A stretch of 64,000 nucleotides of DNA, from the sequence record PX104379.1. One strand, 5' to 3'. Of this stretch, positions 5,176-64,000 are shown one piece after another. Position numbers and translations under genes: made by a program. Each line of letters opens with the position of its first letter. The stretch's first letter is position 1. This DNA comes from a phage. The notes under the pieces were generated by a model. That model was not told where the DNA came from, made no database searches, and was given only the letters and a program-made list of their open reading frames with translations.

Positions 5176-6114
5176 TTATTTAAATTGTTCAGTAACGTCT
5201 TCAACTACTTCGTATTGGCAGGTACGCATTTTAGCATCGTTGTAATCAATCGGAATTGATACTACATCGCGTGGATGTACTTTAACTTTTACAACTCGGC
5301 TGGTTGAACCACCGAAGTGACGAATATAAGATTTAGAACACACATGCAGACCACGAGAACAAGTTTGTGTATCATCGTCATTCACACGAGTACGTGGCAT
5401 TTTAACTACTTTACCAGGACTGTTATCAAAGGTGTTTGAGTGACAGTCAAAGTAATTGCTGCGAACTACTTTCCAAGCATAGAAGTAACCATCTTCTGTA
5501 ATTTCAATATCGTTTGCTACCAAGAAATCAAAGAGTCGAGATACCGCTTTTTGGCTTGGGTTTTCCAGCAGATTTTCCAAGAACGGAAAATAAAATTCAA
5601 AGTTTTCGCCTTTTTCCATCGAGTCAAGAATACGATCAACCAAACCAGACCGCAATTCGATATTTTGATAGAACAAGCTTCCACCTTCAATTCGAACATC
5701 GCCGGAAATATATTTTTCAACAGCACGGCGAACATTAATTTTTTGTGCAGCTTCTTCCAGCTTATCCGCTACAAGCAGATTAAGAATTTCCTGGAAGTTT
5801 GAATGAGTATTAGGAGTTGCGTTATAAGTTACACCGTCAACAGTAATTGAAATGAATTTTTTAGAAGCATTCCAAATAATATCAGATTTAGCAACTGGAG
5901 CAATAACTGCATCGCTATTAACTTTAACTGTAATATCACCGCTAATAGTAACTTTAGAGCGTTTAGCTTCTTCAGCATTTTTCAAAACACGACGGATTGT
6001 GTCAACCGATACACCTTGCCAATCAGCCAATTCCTGTTGGGTGTAATTACCACTTGAATACAGTTTAACAATTTCAGCTTGTTCGTTTTTGGTCAGGCAT
6101 TTAATATTGTACAT
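5176..6114 (-). CDS. rIIB: RIIB lysis inhibition/exclusion protein
   Basis: 312 aa as T4 RIIB; directly follows rIIA. Confidence 0.85.
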   Translation of the reverse strand: MYNIKCLTKNEQAEIVKLYSSGNYTQQELADWQGVSVDTIRRVLKNAEEAKRSKVTISGDITVKVNSDAVIAPVAKSDIIWNASKKFISITVDGVTYNATPNTHSNFQEILNLLVADKLEEAAQKINVRRAVEKYISGDVRIEGGSLFYQNIELRSGLVDRILDSMEKGENFEFYFPFLENLLENPSQKAVSRLFDFLVANDIEITEDGYFYAWKVVRSNYFDCHSNTFDNSPGKVVKMPRTRVNDDDTQTCSRGLHVCSKSYIRHFGGSTSRVVKVKVHPRDVVSIPIDYNDAKMRTCQYEVVEDVTEQFK

Positions 6115-52752: not shown

Positions 52753-52995
52753 TTATTCCTTAATTCCTAGTACTTGTTTAAAAGTCTCGTCGTAATCAAG
52801 ACTTTGGCCCGTTTGTTCTTTATGTTTGTATATAATATCACTTACTTCTGATAGCATATTTTTGTATGAACGAGTTACAGCAGATTTAAGCACGCTGTAT
52901 CTATCAGGAAATTTACCATGTTCATTATAATAAGCTATTGCTAATTCACGGACTGCCTTTTCAGCAGTCTCCATATATTCTTTACGCTTGGTCAT
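52753..52995 (-). CDS. hypothetical protein (80 aa)
   Basis: ORF track. Confidence 0.5.
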
Positions 52996-55424: not shown

Positions 55425-56444
55425 CTAGTTTAGTGCATTTAGTGCGTTGTTCAGTTTAGAACGTTGCTTCGTGAGATTTTTGACTTTTTCTTGTGCTTTT
55501 TCTAGCATCTTTTCAGCTTCTAACACTTCATTGGTCGCTTTAACGAGTTCATCATCTACTGCCTTAAGAGACTTCTCAATCGCATCCGCGTGCCATTTTT
55601 CAACAGGTTTAAGACTCGGATTTTCAATAGGAAGAAAATTCGCTTTATTAAATTTCCATGCATCTTTATTACCTGAGCTATACATCCAAAATTTAGGATC
55701 GTTTGATGAGCAATTAGATAAATTTAAGTTATCTTGCACTTCCTGCTTTTTCTCTTGCGTGACTTCGTCTTTTCTCAAAAAATCATATTTAAATGAAACG
55801 ATCATATCAAGTTCATATGTTGTTGTATGTTCCCAATTTCGCTCAAAACGAGGTAAAATCTTAGACTGAACAGCGGCAACAACATCCATATACTTAAATG
55901 CTTCTGTCAACTGTGATTTAAGGCATTCACAAATTGAAAGAGAATTTTTTGTATTAGGTTTAAAGCTAATTCGTGCAGTTCTATTATTTTCTTTTAACGG
56001 TCTTACTTCCATCTGAAGAGTATAACCATCAAATTTCAGATTCTTTAAGTTAATATCAGAGCCTTTTAATCGACTAGCAGTAGACAAAATTTGCTTTAAT
56101 TGTTTACGAAATAGAGCAATAAATCTCCATTCAATACGATAATGATTTGGATTAAAAAATCCTGTTGATAAATCAACCTTACTCTGACCAACGCCTTGAA
56201 CAAATAGAGGATTTTTATAATCAATAGTTTTACAGAAATCGGTGAGCTGCTCACGAGCAGTCATTTGTGTAATATATCCCGCTTTACTAAAATGACGTAA
56301 CCATTCACTGCTATTCATATACTTAAAGTGAATGGAACTATTAACTCTATCAGGGTCTAAATTATTTTGGCACAAAAATGTCATAACATTACGGGTATAG
56401 CTGGCATTACGAACCATATCTTCAATTTGAGAACGAGTTTTCAT
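55425..56444 (-). CDS. coiled-coil-tailed paralog family member C (339 aa)
   Basis: N-terminus MKTRSQIEDM; YMDVVAAV block; C-terminal coiled coil. Confidence 0.55.
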   Translation of the reverse strand: MKTRSQIEDMVRNASYTRNVMTFLCQNNLDPDRVNSSIHFKYMNSSEWLRHFSKAGYITQMTAREQLTDFCKTIDYKNPLFVQGVGQSKVDLSTGFFNPNHYRIEWRFIALFRKQLKQILSTASRLKGSDINLKNLKFDGYTLQMEVRPLKENNRTARISFKPNTKNSLSICECLKSQLTEAFKYMDVVAAVQSKILPRFERNWEHTTTYELDMIVSFKYDFLRKDEVTQEKKQEVQDNLNLSNCSSNDPKFWMYSSGNKDAWKFNKANFLPIENPSLKPVEKWHADAIEKSLKAVDDELVKATNEVLEAEKMLEKAQEKVKNLTKQRSKLNNALNALN

Positions 56445-56452
56445 AGTGTTCC

Positions 56453-57361
56453 TTAAGATTTAAGTAAATCAACAATTTTAATTAATTTTTCACGCTCAGA
56501 TTTAGCTTTACTACTCAATCCAGATAGTCTGAAAATTTCATCGTCATACTGTTGAATAGAAATATTCAGCTCTTCAATTTGCTTATTAAAATAATCAATT
56601 TGCTCAGAATGTTTTTCATTACTGCGAACTGGTACAGGTTTTGTAGGCAATTTAGTTAAACTGGATTCATCCGGACGATAAATTAAAATACAACTTGAAC
56701 CAATCGGGCATTTAGCACCAGACACATATTCTAATGTTCCGGCTTCTTTTAAAACTTCAAAAGCTAAACAGAGATGATGCCCCATATTAACATAATCTGT
56801 AGAGCGAGCTCTGACGTAATAATCATCGCCGCGAATACTAAATTTAAAGCATTTAAGGTCTTCTGTATTATTGGTCTTAAAAATCATTTGTTTATCTAGA
56901 CCTTTAGCTAATCGAGCGCCTAATGCTAATAATCGTCGTTGATTTTCCCACAAATCTGCGATCATTTGGTCAAATGATAATTTCGGCATTAGTCGACCGT
57001 AAAGATCATAGCCTTTATTATAATTGCGAAGAATTTCACTCGCGTTAATACGAGACAACGCTCCAATTTTATTAAGGGCTTTCATGATGCGATTAGATAA
57101 ACCCATTCCAGACCCGTTTGTTCGTTGTAAATGTTTATCTAATCCAAACCCAATATCAACTTTAAATTTATCTAAAATTTCAGCATGAACATCTCTGTCA
57201 ATAACATTCAAATCCAAAGTTGGGTTAAATCTATGAAAAAATTTATCTGGCTCTCCACGACGAAGTACAGTCCATTCATTCAATTTTTTATTAACTAAAG
57301 ATTTAATTACTGCATTGACATTATTAATTACTACTGACATATTTTCCTCACTCAATTTCAA
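56453..57361 (-). CDS. coiled-coil-tailed protein D (302 aa)
   Basis: C-terminal heptad segment; weaker similarity to A, B and C. Confidence 0.5.
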   Translation of the reverse strand: MKLSEENMSVVINNVNAVIKSLVNKKLNEWTVLRRGEPDKFFHRFNPTLDLNVIDRDVHAEILDKFKVDIGFGLDKHLQRTNGSGMGLSNRIMKALNKIGALSRINASEILRNYNKGYDLYGRLMPKLSFDQMIADLWENQRRLLALGARLAKGLDKQMIFKTNNTEDLKCFKFSIRGDDYYVRARSTDYVNMGHHLCLAFEVLKEAGTLEYVSGAKCPIGSSCILIYRPDESSLTKLPTKPVPVRSNEKHSEQIDYFNKQIEELNISIQQYDDEIFRLSGLSSKAKSEREKLIKIVDLLKS

Positions 57362-57810: not shown

Positions 57811-58338
57811 TTATGCGAGTACCGTCTTTAACCGTTCTTCAAACTTCCGAAGAGTATTCTGGCGTTCAGCTCTTTGCTTTTTGTAAGTTTCAATACGCTC
57901 TGAAATGAGAGTGTATCGTTCATTTACTGATTCTTTCATAAAATCAGGAATTTCACGAGAAGCTTTAATCTCGTCAAATTTATCAATAACAGCTTGCTCT
58001 TCAGCAATTAAGTTATCATACATCAAAATATCTTTCTTGATGAACTCAATATCTTCTTGAGTTACACGAGATAATTTAGATGCTTTATCCTTTTTGTACT
58101 GTTCGTTAGTATCACGAGACCAGTGTAATGTACGATTTTTATTCGTATTTTTGTAAATTTCTACAATACCAATCTCATCGATGATAACAATCCAATTCCA
58201 ACGAGATTTATAAATTTGTCCTCCATCAACCGTGATTTCACCTCCAATTGAGATGTCATTAAAGAACTTGCTTTGTGCTTCAGATTTAAATTTACCATCG
58301 TTGTAATTTACCAAGTTGAAAATATCTTTAGCATTCAT
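57811..58338 (-). CDS. hypothetical protein (175 aa) with C-terminal coiled coil
   Basis: ORF track; GGAGG RBS after early promoter. Confidence 0.5.
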   Translation of the reverse strand: MNAKDIFNLVNYNDGKFKSEAQSKFFNDISIGGEITVDGGQIYKSRWNWIVIIDEIGIVEIYKNTNKNRTLHWSRDTNEQYKKDKASKLSRVTQEDIEFIKKDILMYDNLIAEEQAVIDKFDEIKASREIPDFMKESVNERYTLISERIETYKKQRAERQNTLRKFEERLKTVLA

Positions 58339-60147: not shown

Positions 60148-61158
60148 TCATTTATAATAACTTCGGTGGTTTTCAAGATAGACCTTCTCAAGGAAGTCAT
60201 CCCAGAAACTCATGTCTACTGTTTTAGGCATACCGTTCTTAGAAGCTTCAGTAGATGCTGCTTCTACTTGATCGACCACATCTTCCAAAAACTCTTGAAC
60301 TGTTTTAAATGGATGTTTACCCAACTTCACGTCGAGAATAAATGGAGCATCTTGGAGTGGATAGACTAAGTCACCAGTTTTGTAAATTTCCAATAGTTGG
60401 AGTCCACCACGACAAGCATGACTTAGTGCTTTCCAATCAATGCCTTCATTGGCTTCGGCCTTACGAGCACGTTCACCGTATTCAGCATCTAATTTGTTCA
60501 GTGACTGCTTAAGCTCAATAAGAGAAAGCGTTGTCTGATATTTACGACCCAACACAGTGTAGAACGTTTGTGGGCCTGTTTTCTCATGATTATGGAACAC
60601 CCATTCACAGAATTCGTTTTCTGGAAGACGATGCTTAATATCTTCAACTTTAGTACGACGCTGCTTAATGGAACCGTCTTCTTGGTAATCAACCCATTGC
60701 TCAGGGATTTGATTAACTACTTTCAATACATCACGTAATGCAGCCAAACGAGAACCCTTGACGCCGTATTTAGAAGCTTGCTTGCGGACATATCCTAAAT
60801 ATGATTTCATGTTAGTCGTATAAAAACGAGAACGGTTGTCTTGAATAAACTTCCACACATCAGGCAAATCGGATTTAACCACTAGTTCAGGTGGAGTGTG
60901 AAGCATATCCAACGCTACAGTTTCACCATCTGCTGCTAATTTAAAGAAATATTTAAGACTGTATAGTTCATGGTCAATATCATCTTTAGTGTTTTTAGAT
61001 GATGTATTGTTAGTATTTTTACTCATATGCTCTTTAACATTTCCGATAAGAATATCGCGAGCAGGAGGAACAAAGATTTCTTTAAAATCTACATCAGATT
61101 CTGGGGTAGAAGTTCCATAAAGATGACTACCAAAATAGCTTTTCATTACTGTTTTCAT
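60148..61158 (-). CDS. putative Pol-beta-superfamily nucleotidyltransferase (336 aa)
   Basis: N-terminal GS...YG...SDVD motif (YFGSHLYGTSTPESDVDF). Confidence 0.5.
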   Translation of the reverse strand: MKTVMKSYFGSHLYGTSTPESDVDFKEIFVPPARDILIGNVKEHMSKNTNNTSSKNTKDDIDHELYSLKYFFKLAADGETVALDMLHTPPELVVKSDLPDVWKFIQDNRSRFYTTNMKSYLGYVRKQASKYGVKGSRLAALRDVLKVVNQIPEQWVDYQEDGSIKQRRTKVEDIKHRLPENEFCEWVFHNHEKTGPQTFYTVLGRKYQTTLSLIELKQSLNKLDAEYGERARKAEANEGIDWKALSHACRGGLQLLEIYKTGDLVYPLQDAPFILDVKLGKHPFKTVQEFLEDVVDQVEAASTEASKNGMPKTVDMSFWDDFLEKVYLENHRSYYK

Positions 61159-61613
61159 TTAACATCCTTAAATTCTATCATAGGGCAGATTTTAGATTTA
61201 CTAGCTTTAAGGTATTCAACGATTACACTCTTAGGATGTTCAATACCGTTTTCTTCGTCTTGTTGACGCTTCCACGCTCTATCATACCTGACTCCTTCCC
61301 ATAAACCTGAAATCTTAGCTACAATATATGCTATACCTACTGCAATAACGACAATCGTAGCAAATATCAGTACACCAAATACGGTTCCGCCTGCGTGTAG
61401 AAGCCAGAATCCTGTAACACCAAATTGACTTAAAATAGCTTGTCCTACCACCCAACTACCTAATAGCCCCGATGTGCAAATAACACCGATAACTAAGAAC
61501 GTCCACGCCATTTTCCAGAAATATTTACACAAAGAATTCGGACGCTGCCAGTAAAAGAAATCATGCATACGAACGTGCCAAGAGTTTTTGTTAATAATCA
61601 TAATTATAATCAT
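61155..61613 (-). CDS. multi-pass membrane protein (152 aa)
   Basis: Several hydrophobic helices. Confidence 0.5.
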   Translation of the reverse strand: MIIIMIINKNSWHVRMHDFFYWQRPNSLCKYFWKMAWTFLVIGVICTSGLLGSWVVGQAILSQFGVTGFWLLHAGGTVFGVLIFATIVVIAVGIAYIVAKISGLWEGVRYDRAWKRQQDEENGIEHPKSVIVEYLKASKSKICPMIEFKDVK

Positions 61614-62131
61614 CCTTTCATTGAAGGCGTAACGGTTGTTAAATATTTAATCATAGCTTCAGCTTCTGATTTTGATAATGAAATTTCTCCATTGTTTTGA
61701 CGAATAGAAATAAAATCCGGATGACGGTCACCACCAGCTTTTAAAACACACATATAAGTATCAACTTCGCCTTCAATATTTGAAATGATTGAAGCAGTTC
61801 CACATGAATGCGGTTTTTGATAAATCAATACAGCTTTTCTTCCACCATTTGAATGTTCATAGGCTTTTAATACATCAAACAAATCAGTTCTTTTATCAAT
61901 AGCTAAAATGTTATTTTCATCTTCAATGTTAAATCCTTCGGATACTTCATAAAGCGTTACCCATAAATCACCAATGTCAATAACAGCATTTACTTTTCCA
62001 CGGCTTTCAAGAGTATGACAAATTTTCTTGATTTCGTCATAACTCATTTTAATAATATCATCTCCTTGGCTAAGAAAGATGTCATTTTTAAATTCAACAC
62101 GAATTAAACCGCTTCCACTTGAAATAAACAT
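61610..62131 (-). CDS. hypothetical protein (173 aa), paralog of next ORF
   Basis: C-terminus SKSEAEAMIKYLTTVTPSM resembles TKDEAIALKTYLDSVIPTM of the neighbour. Confidence 0.5.
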   Translation of the reverse strand: MFISSGSGLIRVEFKNDIFLSQGDDIIKMSYDEIKKICHTLESRGKVNAVIDIGDLWVTLYEVSEGFNIEDENNILAIDKRTDLFDVLKAYEHSNGGRKAVLIYQKPHSCGTASIISNIEGEVDTYMCVLKAGGDRHPDFISIRQNNGEISLSKSEAEAMIKYLTTVTPSMKG

Positions 62132-62137
62132 ATTTCC

Positions 62138-62692
62138 TCACTTTGAAATCATAGTTGGAATAACAGAATCAAGATAAGTCTTTAGTGCAATAGCTTCGTC
62201 TTTGGTAAATGTGACAATATGTGCTCGAGAATCATCAATTTGGCGAACAAGTACGACATCGCCATCTTCATAAGAAGTCTTGACATCCAAAGTCGTAGTA
62301 TAATTTGCAGCTACTGGATTAATAATGCTAGCACCGCGATCTTTAGCCCATTGAAGTTTAGCCTTTTCGGGTGTTTCGACTGTTTCACATTCCAAGAATT
62401 CTTTCACCTTGGCAACGAATGTTGCCCAATTGTTGATAGAAAGACACATAAATTCAGTTTCAATATTACCGCCGTAAAGGCCACGATAAAAACGAACTTG
62501 GAGGTCGCCTGTAATATTAGTTACACCGGTAACTCCTGAGGGAGCATAAGATAAAATCGCAGCCAGTTCCATAGGAAGAATAGTAATACTATCATCTTCC
62601 TGCGTCAGAACGTATACATTATCACGTTTTTCGATAACCAGGTCACCGAACAAATCAGTTGTTTCAATTACAGCTTTCATATTATGTACCAA
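62138..62692 (-). CDS. hypothetical protein (184 aa)
   Basis: ORF track; paralog of 61610..62131. Confidence 0.5.
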   Translation of the reverse strand: MVHNMKAVIETTDLFGDLVIEKRDNVYVLTQEDDSITILPMELAAILSYAPSGVTGVTNITGDLQVRFYRGLYGGNIETEFMCLSINNWATFVAKVKEFLECETVETPEKAKLQWAKDRGASIINPVAANYTTTLDVKTSYEDGDVVLVRQIDDSRAHIVTFTKDEAIALKTYLDSVIPTMISK

Positions 62693-62867
62693 TTAAAGTT
62701 TCAATATAAGAATCAAGATTTACTTTAGCTTCTTCCATAAGAGTTTTGTATTTAATCTTGTTAGCATGTCCGGAGAAAGCTGATTCATCAATAACTGTTG
62801 ATGTATGAACAGCTCTACTATACGTCTCAATTAATTCTCTTAATTTAAAAGCCTGCTCACTTGTCAT
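62682..62867 (-). CDS. small helical protein (61 aa), family member
   Basis: MTSEQAFKLRELIETYSRAV... pattern shared by three neighbours. Confidence 0.45.
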   Translation of the reverse strand: MTSEQAFKLRELIETYSRAVHTSTVIDESAFSGHANKIKYKTLMEEAKVNLDSYIETLIGT

Positions 62868-63031
62868 TACATACTCCTTTGAATAATATCAATAATGTTA
62901 TTTACCAAATTATAAGTAAACATTGGGTAATTATATTGAATCATCACATATATAACAAACAAAACTTTCATTCTCTTCTCCTTGGCAGTTGACAAGATTA
63001 CTATACCATAACCTTGCCAACTTGTAAACCA

Positions 63032-63205
63032 TTAAATGACGTTTTCGATAAAATTCTGAAGCTTTGTATGAGCATCAACCATGATTTTCATTTCTTCCTT
63101 TGCGAAAGCTGTACCTCTTTCACGAGAAGAACATTCATAGTCAGAAACTGCATTAGCATATTCTTCAATTAGCTTCATTAAAAACATCTGCTTTTCAGTT
63201 TTCAT
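63032..63205 (-). CDS. small helical protein (57 aa), family member
   Basis: MKTEKQMFLMKLIEEYANAV...; start embedded in the stop region of the upstream ORF; not in the ORF track. Confidence 0.4.
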   Translation of the reverse strand: MKTEKQMFLMKLIEEYANAVSDYECSSRERGTAFAKEEMKIMVDAHTKLQNFIENVI

Positions 63206-63389
63206 TATTCCACCTAATCATTTCAAGATATTGAACTAACTTAGCTTTGGATTTATCCAAATCCTTTTTAGCTGCTTCTATACCGTCGTATGAATATCCT
63301 TCACAATGCTCAACTGCCAATTGATATGAATCTATTTCAATATCACGTGCTAATTTAATGATTTTTTCAAACTGTTCACGTGTTAGCAT
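63195..63389 (-). CDS. small helical protein (64 aa), family member
   Basis: MLTREQFEKIIKLARDIEID... Confidence 0.45.
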   Translation of the reverse strand: MLTREQFEKIIKLARDIEIDSYQLAVEHCEGYSYDGIEAAKKDLDKSKAKLVQYLEMIRWNNEN

Positions 63390-63391
63390 AA

Positions 63392-63631
63392 TTAAACTCT
63401 CGTATTATGATCGATAATTTCATCAAGAAACATATCTAACGCTTCTACAGCATTGTTAACTTTATCTTCAAATTCTTCAATACTTTTATTTGCAATGCCT
63501 GACGAAAACCAAGCAAAGTCACTAAGTTCCTCATCTGCTTTACGAATTAAAGCTACCAATTCCTTAATTTTATCAGCTTGTTCGATACTAATCATTATTC
63601 CACCACATATGAAAGAGAGAATATTGCACAC
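63392..63631 (-). CDS. small helical protein (79 aa), family member
   Basis: ...[20 protein letters not shown]... Confidence 0.45.
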
Positions 63632-63828
63632 GCCATGTGAGTTGCAACTTCATCACACATATTATAACGTTTCTTAAGAAGTTCTACAAGTTCTTCACTA
63701 GTAACTTCATCCATGTCGACGAAAAAATCACCATTAATGATGACGTAGATATTTCCTTCTTGATTGAGTGCTTCAATTTTCATGATGTTCTCCTCTTTAT
63801 CCGATAGTTGTATAGTATCACAGCTCAA
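63595..63828 (-). CDS. hypothetical protein (77 aa)
   Basis: ORF track; downstream of an early promoter. Confidence 0.45.
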
Positions 63829-63841
63829 ACGGAAAGTAAAC
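63812..63841 (-). promoter_or_regulatory. T4-type early promoter
   Basis: Minus strand GTTTACTttccgtttgagctgtgaTACTAT. Confidence 0.55.
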
Positions 63842-63857
63842 CGGTAAAATGAAAAAA

Positions 63858-63873
63858 GTCTCCCGAAGGAGAC
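63858..63873 (-). terminator. GC hairpin (UUCG loop)
   Basis: gtctcc-cgaa-ggagac. Confidence 0.5.
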
Positions 63874-64000
63874 TAATGTTATTCGAGGGAAAGAAGATAC
63901 TTACTCTGGTAAAACATTCCAGTAATATCATCTATCGTGCTTTGGATGGCTGGAGGCATTTCTTTATAAATGCTGTTAGATTGGTCTAGTATGCGATCAA

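Follow-up and report, generated by a model that had tools for sequence, protein, structure and literature searches.

Four small open reading frames (ORFs) on the minus strand of the mobD.1–mobD.5/rI region, here designated A, B, C and D (Table 1), are genuine paralogs of the DUF7438 family, best read as small acidic immediate-early hairpin proteins that would act by binding host or phage partners, a reading whose chances of being correct are put at about even. The 64-kb stretch of DNA that was analyzed, hereafter the window, is part of a Tequatrovirus (T4-like phage) genome, and its mobD region is syntenic with that of T4, G4498, Kha5h, TH54 and JQD51. The comparison with the T4 mobD/rI region that the initial annotation had proposed as a check gave exact agreement, and all four ORFs were present on the minus strand with the N-termini quoted there. 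The four genes are already known T4-type genes and their family is catalogued in Pfam without an assigned function.

Table 1. Features of the mobD.1–mobD.5/rI region, in window coordinates and listed in the order of transcription.
Feature	Coordinates	Strand	Details
Intrinsic terminator	63857..63874	-	AGTCTCCTTCGGGAGACT and a T run after it; terminates the rI.-1 unit lying upstream
T4-type early promoter upstream of mobD.5	63812..63841	-	GTTTAC 63841..63836; TG-n-TACTAT, -10 hexamer 63817..63812
mobD.5 orthologue	63595..63783	-	62 aa, acidic; first cistron of the unit; phrog_3024, E 2.2e-44
D (mobD.4 orthologue)	63392..63595	-	67 aa, pI 4.3; DUF7438, 57.8 bits; pN/pS 0.20
C (mobD.3 orthologue)	63195..63389	-	64 aa; DUF7438, 64.1 bits; pN/pS 0.15
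B (full-length mobD.2a)	63032..63205	-	57 aa; DUF7438, 56.5 bits; pN/pS 0.12
Second early promoter, between B and mobD.2	63000..63029	-	GTTTAC, 17-nt spacing, TG-n-TATAGT
mobD.2 orthologue	62867..62971	-	34 aa, hydrophobic; AAGGAG ribosome-binding site; named mobD.2 in relatives
A	62682..62867	-	61 aa; DUF7438, 57.5 bits; phrog_4859, 3.7e-38; without T4 equivalent
Two tandem mobD.1 paralogs	61610..62680	-	62138..62680 (180 aa from ATG) and 61610..62131 (173 aa)

The initial description of these ORFs as four tandem genes holds for D, C and B, which are strictly tandem, but not for A, which is set apart from B because the unrelated mobD.2 ORF and an early promoter intervene. There is little or no space between the cistrons, whose junctions take the form of TAATG, a 2-nt gap or an 11-nt overlap, so that coupling of translation is likely. 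Thus, the ATG of D overlaps the stop codon of mobD.5 within TAATG, C starts 2 nt past the stop of D, and the ATG of B (63205..63203), which is preceded by AGGTGG, lies 11 nt within the 3' end of C (stop TGA, 63197..63195), as the initial annotation had recognized. The additional remark that the ORF track had missed a member does not reflect a property of the sequence, as an ordinary ORF scan lists B. For A, the ATG overlaps the mobD.2 stop, again within TAATG, and a mobD.1 paralog starts 1 nt past the A stop. The protein lengths had been given as 57 to 79 aa; the lower end stands, while the true range is 57–67 aa and the value of 79 aa stems from a GTG-extended reading of D. The homologous position and the start annotated in relatives place the start of D at ATG 63595 and not at GTG 63631.

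The neighboring small genes belong to other families. The DNA of the mobD.5 orthologue is identical to T4 mobD.5, and its product matches no Pfam family, shows no similarity to A–D and falls outside DUF7438. The mobD.2 orthologue, which interrupts the array, has no Pfam match and is unrelated to the DUF7438 family. Both mobD.1 paralogs, the downstream cistrons of the early unit that contains mobD.2 and A, carry the Pfam domains T4_y05I_N and T4_y05I_C and share 29% identity (E 2e-8).

Membership of A–D in one family is based on profile comparisons. Each protein matches Pfam DUF7438 (PF24219) end to end with E-values from 1.4e-15 to 1.5e-17 and scores of 56.5–64.1 bits, against a gathering cut-off of 25 bits, covering profile positions 1–56 or 1–57 of 57. 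These matches bear out the proposal that the four ORFs are paralogs. An HMM built from family members and run against the whole window recovers exactly A–D and nothing more below E = 3. Pairwise similarity is significant for A–B (z 6.1) and A–D (z 5.3; 0/1000 shuffles in each case), and alignments of C with A, B or D do not reach significance. C is joined to the others via profiles: hhalign pairs it with D (P 2.5e-4 over 59 columns), phrog_653 is common to both, and intermediate sequences bridge the subfamilies. In T4, DUF7438 comprises mobD.2a, mobD.3 (Y05K), mobD.4 (Y05L), tk.1 and tk.2, and A is a fourth copy in the mobD cluster; when HMMs are built without tk.1 or tk.2, these two are still found at 4.2e-10 and 5.6e-4, respectively. 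The paralogs are ancient, given that DNA similarity between copies is lacking and that other T-even genera have separate lineages of the A, B, C and D types. A recent duplication is ruled out: similarity between copies at the DNA level amounts to one 13-nt junction repeat, and orthologues specific to each paralog type exist in other genera. Arrays are conserved in other genera, with three members in a row and one near tk in TH54 and two plus two in JQD51.

In comparison with the DUF7438 genes of T4, B, C and D are direct orthologues with 93–100% DNA identity outside the mobD.4 loop, and locus, size, fold and early timing agree, whereas the phage studied here has the extra gene A, an intact mobD.2a and a mobD.4 of 67 aa (60 aa in T4). 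The alignment to T4, which does not carry A, breaks exactly at the TAATG junction of mobD.2 and A. A is carried by ~204 of ~511 close relatives and is thus missing from most, and diverged orthologues are present in TH54 and JQD51. Its pN/pS of 0.57 derives from only 9 variable sites and is inconclusive at that number, so that the coding evidence for A is weaker within Tequatrovirus and consists mainly of ORF conservation across genera. For B, a 1-nt deletion in the T4 reference splits mobD.2a into pieces of 38 and 33 aa, each of which matches the family HMM; the T4D annotation in the HIDEN-SEQ preprint lists an intact mobD.2a of 174 nt. The C orthologue mobD.3 is present in 586 phage records, and within Tequatrovirus it is at least 95% identical in 472 of the 586; the characterization of the proteins as diversified therefore applies between the ancient paralogs and not within Tequatrovirus. 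This strong conservation of mobD.3 could fit a housekeeping role in phage physiology, invisible to laboratory screens, equally well. From phage to phage, mobD.4 takes forms of 60 to 70 aa; its hairpin loop is hypervariable, and among 41 cluster representatives the variation clusters at residues ~23–47. All four proteins are acidic, with pI values of 4.3–5.5 and net charges of -2 to -9 (-9.4 for mobD.4).

Several observations indicate that these ORFs are functional genes. Purifying selection acts on B, C and D (pN/pS 0.12–0.20), with an excess of third-position variation, and the ORFs are kept across genera at 20–45% identity. Translation, on which the initial annotation had made its proposal depend, has support from T4, where mass spectrometry detected the orthologues of C and D, MobD.3 (P39238) and MobD.4 (P39237), both of the early-RNA/early-protein class, and also Tk.1 and Tk.2, as middle proteins (PMC9697503 supplement). 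It is therefore scarcely credible that these are, in part or altogether, chance ORFs or non-functional leftovers in a hyperplastic region, a reading that is also at odds with the full-length family matches and the confident fold predictions. It could draw on the dispensability of all members, on the frameshift of mobD.2a in the T4 reference and its truncated forms in several relatives, and on the patchy presence of A, but for C and D it is largely refuted.

The genes are organized into two back-to-back immediate-early units, the first consisting of promoter-mobD.5-D-C-B and the second of promoter-mobD.2-A followed by the two mobD.1 paralogs. The terminator of the rI.-1 unit was found by a terminator scan, is annotated in relatives and has an identical copy in T4. 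The promoter upstream of mobD.5 differs from its T4 counterpart by 1 base, and the transcript from the T4 promoter was detected by primer extension (PMC1702504). The second early promoter is the top match of the promoter scan (10/12, with an extended -10) and is ~93% identical to T4, with 2 of 30 bases differing. Judged by its coordinates, it would correspond to Pe57954/Pe57.9 of T4, early promoters upstream of genes that rise in a dksA mutant (PMC6024815).

This response to host DksA, together with the immediate-early timing, raises the question of whether A–D act as modulators of host transcription or translation. Like a number of other small T4 early proteins, they might bind, for instance, RNA polymerase or a factor associated with it, maybe in concert with the adjacent MobD.1. 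MobD.1 (T4_y05I) is a constant neighbor that Pfam labels a putative transcription factor, and in TH54 a DksA/TraR-type zinc-finger gene directly follows the array. However, this line of reasoning is pure guilt by association, the MobD.1 label is itself a prediction, no growth phenotype is known, and A–D resemble neither AsiA, DksA nor any Pfam family other than DUF7438, RNA-polymerase binders included. Overall, such a role is considered unlikely.

Structure prediction provides a common architecture for the family. The AlphaFold2 (AF2) models of A (helices 3–28 and 34–60, pLDDT 79.8) and C (helices 4–30 and 34–63, pLDDT 94.6) are both two-helix hairpins, even though C lacks significant pairwise similarity to the other members, in line with the shared helical fold expected from the initial annotation. 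A and C are thus modelled as acidic antiparallel two-helix hairpins of ~7 kDa. B and D, which can be aligned with A and C over their full length, can be assigned the same putative fold from family membership and alignment. Homologues in BFVD from other T-even genera superpose at TM 0.86–0.93. Foldseek searches of the PDB with the models of A and C returned generic hairpins only (best E 0.3–0.4, none at E ≤ 0.001), a profile search of PDB sequences gave nothing below E 0.16, and no characterized family beyond generic Rop-like hairpins matches DUF7438 members.

The best superposition of A onto a solved structure is obtained with Rop/ROM of ColE1 plasmids (4do2_A, TM 0.85–0.90), likewise an antiparallel two-helix hairpin of ~60 residues. 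Rop binds RNA by a basic face. Size and topology would hence allow A–D to be Rop-like nucleic-acid binders whose hairpin dimers regulate phage genes through RNA or DNA structures, but this is very improbable: Foldseek gives an E-value of 0.3, with dozens of unrelated hairpins at similar scores, A–D are acidic, a sequence relation is lacking (no Rop match in the Pfam scan up to E 1), the biological context differs, and no Rfam element (0 matches in 61500..64000 on both strands) or notable RNA feature lies nearby. What the analogy with Rop does suggest is dimerization, which would be expected to yield a four-helix bundle. Another comparison is offered by Aqs1 of Pseudomonas phage DMS3 (6v7w chain C), a small early helical hairpin that the model of A matches at TM 0.65–0.72, although the match is not significant (Foldseek E 1.8), sequence similarity is absent, and phage and host lineage differ. 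Aqs1 works purely via host-protein binding and may serve as a functional analogy for the mode of action proposed for DUF7438.

The distribution of the family is narrow. Searched exhaustively with a profile, 1.84 billion representatives yielded 25 clusters, of which all examined short ones are T-even-type; those traced to contigs lie on phage-sized contigs of 165–172 kb. DUF7438 is confined to T-even-type enterobacterial phages (Tevenvirinae), where its genes lie to either side of rI in the mobD or tk small-gene clusters, and this range fits a function bound to enterobacterial hosts. Mimicry of a bacterial or host homologue was rejected, since the search gave only T-even-type short proteins and a few long proteins (942–3120 aa) that match over short stretches and are taken as coiled-coil noise. 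The sole apparent domain fusions were a case in which mobD.2a reads through into mobD.2 and a contig that is probably chimeric.

Two database labels attached to these genes are misleading. A is described as a gp59-type helicase loader (phrog_4859 and some RefSeq records), and Pfam finds only DUF7438 in this 61-aa protein, and neither the N-terminal nor the C-terminal gp59 domain. T4 gp59 has ~217 aa, and the label on A looks like annotation carry-over. Similarly, mobD.4 and mobD.5 are listed as 'molybdopterin-guanine dinucleotide biosynthesis protein MobD', for which no Mob-type Pfam or NCBIfam match was found; the T4 gene name mobD designates a mobile endonuclease, and a clash with this name appears to be the origin of the label.

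The initial annotation considered small diversified helical proteins a common anti-defense architecture, and A–D would accordingly be dedicated anti-defense proteins, each paralog inhibiting or decoying a different bacterial immune system. This role is plausible from the neighborhood: A–D are small, early, non-essential and multi-copy, the presence of A varies among close relatives, and the mobD.4 loop is hypervariable. DNA-mimic anti-restriction proteins are very acidic, as is mobD.4. Within the same hyperplastic nrdC-mobD-tk-vs stretch, counter-defense has been proven for T4 nrdC.1, which inhibits Septu, and for the Bas37 gene at the nrdC.8 position, which inhibits Druantia III (preprint 10.1101/2025.11.20.689424); the ORF at this position in the window shares 99% identity with T4 nrdC.8. 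An Acb2-family gene is also located nearby in phage TH54. The Acb2/Tad1 hairpin sponges (T4 vs.4 family) are themselves small helical phage proteins with a Pfam 'hairpin' domain, encoded a few kb away in the same stretch, but a relation to this family (PF24729) was rejected, given that Pfam shows no cross-match and hhalign gives P 0.12 and a probability of 0.5%.

Beyond the neighborhood, the anti-defense proposal found no support. Scans with PADLOC, Pfam and NCBIfam linked A–D to no PADLOC-associated or known anti-defense family, and B and C are strongly conserved. On the genetic side, the nrdC.11-mobD.3 deletion is viable (PMC9825161). Transposon screens of T4 and Bas37 class all insertions in mobD.x and tk.1/.2 as non-essential, and insertions in T4 mobD.2a/.3/.4 and Bas37 0211–0213 are tolerated in E. 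coli K-12. In the first host comparison for each phage (T4, Bas37), out of the seven in the HIDEN-SEQ tables, DUF7438 insertions show no significant change (log2FC -0.5 to +0.2, q = 1), and DUF7438 members are not named among the conditionally essential hits of the T4 and Bas37 screens on clinical isolates; these screens cover single-gene insertions and a few hosts. No functional study and no known phenotype emerged from a search of the literature on mobD.x, tk.x, Y05K/Y05L and DUF7438. Here, redundancy among up to six paralogs could mask single-gene phenotypes. Taken as a whole, a dedicated anti-defense function of A–D is regarded as possible but doubtful.

A more specific version is rather unlikely, though worth formulating. 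In it, the DUF7438 hairpins, of which a genome has up to six, placed in two clusters on either side of rI, would constitute a T-even-specific immediate-early toolkit of inhibitors or decoys, with each paralog or mixed four-helix pair counteracting its own enterobacterial target among immunity or stress proteins. The mobD.4 loop would then be an arms-race interface, and redundancy would explain why single-gene screens remain silent.

The preferred reading of A–D as partner-binding hairpins makes fewer commitments about the target. Since the proteins lack catalytic features and a single chain is too short for a stable core, the hairpin would most likely pair with itself or with another paralog to form a four-helix bundle. 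The paired hairpins may then bind a host or phage protein stoichiometrically during host takeover, which would make them accessory, host-specific modulators and not factors for replication or structure. Paralogs probably differ in their binding surface, as the mobD.3 loop carries the conserved motif EGYSY and the mobD.4 loop is hypervariable.

DUF7438 represents one of the larger paralogous small-gene families of T-even phages, with 5 members in T4 and at least 4 in the phage studied here. Its proteins are made within minutes of infection and kept in several genera, and they are without an assigned function, a structure or a literature of their own, at a locus adjoining genes recently shown to inhibit Septu and Druantia. 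The genes themselves are known and little is added to their description; the value of the analysis lies in pointing to about six 'dark-matter' genes that could be assigned a role together.

Members A to D, four small ORFs of 61, 57, 64 and 67 aa, are ancient paralogs of a catalogued family; B, C and D are mobD.2a, mobD.3 and mobD.4, and A has no T4 equivalent. Each gives a full-length match to Pfam DUF7438 (PF24219), scoring 56.5-64.1 bits (cut-off 25 bits), which bears out the paralogy proposed in the initial annotation, and the four are the sole matches to a family-built HMM in the 64-kb window. In PHROGs, C and D both fall into phrog_653, A into phrog_4859 with weaker matches to phrog_653 and phrog_2758, and B into phrog_2758 with a match to phrog_4859. 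In Smith-Waterman comparison against shuffles, the pairs A-B (z 6.1) and A-D (z 5.3) reach significance, and C shows no significant similarity to A, B or D. Shallow profile-profile alignment links C-D (P 2.5e-4, 59 columns), A-B (8e-4) and A-D (2.5e-3), and all DUF7438 subfamilies align end to end once intermediates from other phages are included. At DNA level the copies are dissimilar apart from a 13-nt repeat at the B and D starts, and the duplications are therefore old. This exact repeat, GGTGGAATAATGA on the coding strand (63202..63214 and 63592..63604), covers ribosome-binding site plus ATG in both genes and sits in different reading frames of the genes upstream; it may serve B and D as a common translation-initiation module, or may be microhomology exploited in gene shuffling.

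The 2 kb around the array are 97-98.6% identical to many Tequatrovirus phages, with 516 matching phage records. Comparison with annotated relatives and with T4 assigns this stretch to the early region nrdC.11 - (mobD) - mobD.1 - mobD.2 - mobD.2a - mobD.3 - mobD.4 - mobD.5 - rI.-1 - rI - tk, confirming the suspected synteny with the T4 mobD/rI region; in the window, all of these genes are encoded by the minus strand. The previously noted start at 63205 within the stop region of the upstream ORF holds, while the end coordinate 63631 reflects a GTG-extended reading within mobD.5 and gives way to the homologous ATG of D at 63595.

Features of the mobD/rI locus in order of transcription
Feature	Coordinates	Strand	Remark
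Terminator, end of rI.-1 unit	63874..63857	-	read from sequence
T4-type early promoter	GTTTAC 63841..63836; TG-n-TACTAT, -10 hexamer 63817..63812	-	read from sequence
mobD.5	63783..63595	-	read from sequence
Member D (mobD.4)	63595..63392	-	ATG overlaps mobD.5 stop as TAATG
Member C (mobD.3)	63389..63195	-	start 2 nt past D stop
Member B (mobD.2a)	63205..63032	-	ATG 11 nt inside C; AGGTGG ahead of ATG
Second early promoter	63029..63000	-	10/12 consensus matches, extended -10
mobD.2, 34 aa, hydrophobic	62971..62867	-	read from sequence
Member A	62867..62682	-	second TAATG overlap (with mobD.2)
Two tandem mobD.1 paralogs	62680..62138 and 62131..61610	-	downstream of A

At 63812..63874 (minus strand), an early promoter comes immediately after a terminator stem-loop. 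In T4-type hyperplastic regions, 'promoter-early stem-loop' cassettes are proposed mediators of modular shuffling, and this pair appears to resemble them. The promoters and terminator are nearly identical in T4, where primer extension showed the mobD.5 promoter transcript (PMC1702504) and the early promoters Pe57954 and Pe57.9 were reported at a position matching the second promoter (PMC6024815), which, judging by coordinates, is probably their counterpart. The tandem mobD.1 paralogs (Pfam T4_y05I_N and T4_y05I_C, 'putative transcription factor') are mutually only 29% identical; T4 has a single copy, which makes this locus rich in paralogs even apart from the hairpin genes. Compared with T4 56429..57208, the window lacks the HNH homing endonuclease gene mobD. 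Between the mobD.1 paralogs and nrdC.11 (60148..61158, RlaP nucleotidyltransferase domain) lies a 152-aa ORF with hydrophobic stretches (61155..61613, minus strand) that matches no Pfam family, a layout shared with the phages G4498, Kha5h and Bas37.

Comparison of eight Tequatrovirus alleles yields pN/pS values of 0.12 (B), 0.15 (C) and 0.20-0.21 (D), and third-position variation is in excess; the value for A, 0.57, derives from nine variable sites only, and A-type ORFs are kept at 30-45% identity in TH54 and the Mosigvirus-like JQD51. Translation is supported for the T4 orthologues of C and D, since mass spectrometry identified MobD.3 (P39238) and MobD.4 (P39237), both assigned to the early-RNA/early-protein class, with Tk.1 and Tk.2 assigned to early-RNA/middle-protein (PMC9697503 supplement). 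That A-D are non-functional ORFs is, beside these data, hardly credible. The supplement lists no mobD.2a protein because the T4 reference copy (38 aa; positions 5994..6166 of L003, the locus from T4 NC_000866) is a frameshifted fragment of the gene found at 63032..63205 in the window. A single base is deleted relative to the window and most relatives, and the second half, read in another frame, is still recognised by the family HMM. The T4D annotation in the HIDEN-SEQ preprint has mobD.2a intact at 174 nt; the frameshift reflects variation between strains or else an error in the reference sequence. The genes are individually non-essential: a T4 deletion of nrdC.11-mobD.3 is viable (PMC9825161), and the T4/Bas37 transposon study classes insertions in T4 mobD.2a, mobD.3, mobD.4, tk.1 and tk.2 and in Bas37 0211-0213 as non-essential, with log2FC of -0.5 to +0.2 (q = 1) in the one host comparison considered for each phage.

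AlphaFold2 models A as an antiparallel hairpin of two helices (3-28 and 34-60; pLDDT 79.8) and C likewise (helices 4-30 and 34-63; pLDDT 94.6), although C lacks significant pairwise similarity to the others; the expected shared helical fold thus appears in both models made. A conserved M-x-T-x-E-Q motif opens helix 1, and its codons differ among the four genes, therefore conservation acts at the protein level. We interpret the motif as a helix N-cap that leads into an amphipathic heptad pattern. The proteins, products of immediate-early genes, are all acidic (pI 4.3-5.5; net charge of D, -9.4). Foldseek against the PDB reached E-values of 0.3-0.4 at best, headed by Rop and other generic hairpins, and Rop-like nucleic-acid binding is very improbable; modulation of transcription or translation is somewhat less so, if still unlikely. 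There is perhaps an even chance that the hairpins pair into four-helix bundles and work, during takeover, by binding host or phage proteins stoichiometrically. The labels 'helicase loader', propagated on homologues of A (62682..62867), and 'molybdopterin-guanine dinucleotide biosynthesis protein MobD', carried by mobD.4 and mobD.5 homologues (63392..63783), look wrong and find no support in Pfam or NCBIfam; 'starvation-inducible transcriptional regulator' on rI.-1, a Pfam DUF5856 match, looks wrong as well.

Only enterobacterial T-even phages carry the family. Searched exhaustively with a profile, 1.84 billion representative proteins yielded only 25 clusters, and the short ones examined are all DUF7438-type. 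Two word-indexed searches returned 88 and 119 clusters; where the contigs are long, they are phage-sized (165-172 kb). BFVD fold matches are uncharacterised 57-61 aa proteins of further T-even genera, Merlin, EcS1, VR25, PM2 and MX01 among them. T4 tk.1 and tk.2, beyond rI and tk just past the window end, are also members, confirmed by our HMM built without them. mobD.3 occurs in 586 phage records and is at least 95% identical in 472 of these, and its EGYSY loop is conserved across genera, unlike that of mobD.4, which is hypervariable (residues ~23-47) between nearly invariant helices among otherwise nearly identical phages, yielding forms of 60, 62, 63, 65, 67 and 70 aa. Member A is present in ~204 of ~511 close relatives, its boundary falling exactly at the TAATG junction. 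TH54, a more distant T-even phage, has a different gene order: an unclassified 67-aa ORF that matches no Pfam family occupies the mobD.5 position, and after it come the A-like, D-like and C-like members, a DksA/TraR zinc-finger gene, then DUF7189 and mobD.1; one more DUF7438 copy sits near tk. The zinc-finger protein (85 aa; positions 5562..5819 of L004, Escherichia virus TH54, MT446420.1) directly follows the three-gene array; T4 Pe57954/Pe57.9 respond to host DksA (PMC6024815), a link that may be coincidental.

The array was initially read as anti-defence architecture. Genomic context, the mobD.4 loop variation and the variation of A between phages speak for this. Proven counter-defence genes occur in the neighbourhood: nrdC.1 is reported to inhibit Septu, and bas37_0203, which takes the nrdC.8 position in Bas37, to inhibit Druantia type III (preprint 10.1101/2025.11.20.689424). 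In the window, one ORF (57811..58338, minus strand, 175 aa) is 99% identical to T4 nrdC.8 and another (52753..52995, minus strand, 80 aa) matches nrdC.1 by size and synteny only; likely counter-defence genes therefore lie a few kb from the array. The reading itself was not supported: PDB sequence-profile, PADLOC and NCBIfam searches were negative, as was Foldseek against the PDB beyond generic hairpins, so that neither a characterised family nor a solved structure nor a defence-related profile matches; no relation to the Acb2/Tad1 hairpin was found, and the anti-defence hits that the transposon study reports include none of these genes. A specifically anti-defence role is plausible but doubtful. 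The genes themselves are already known, having been annotated in T4 for decades and their family in Pfam; of greater interest, if true, would be that the paralog set forms a redundant anti-defence toolkit.
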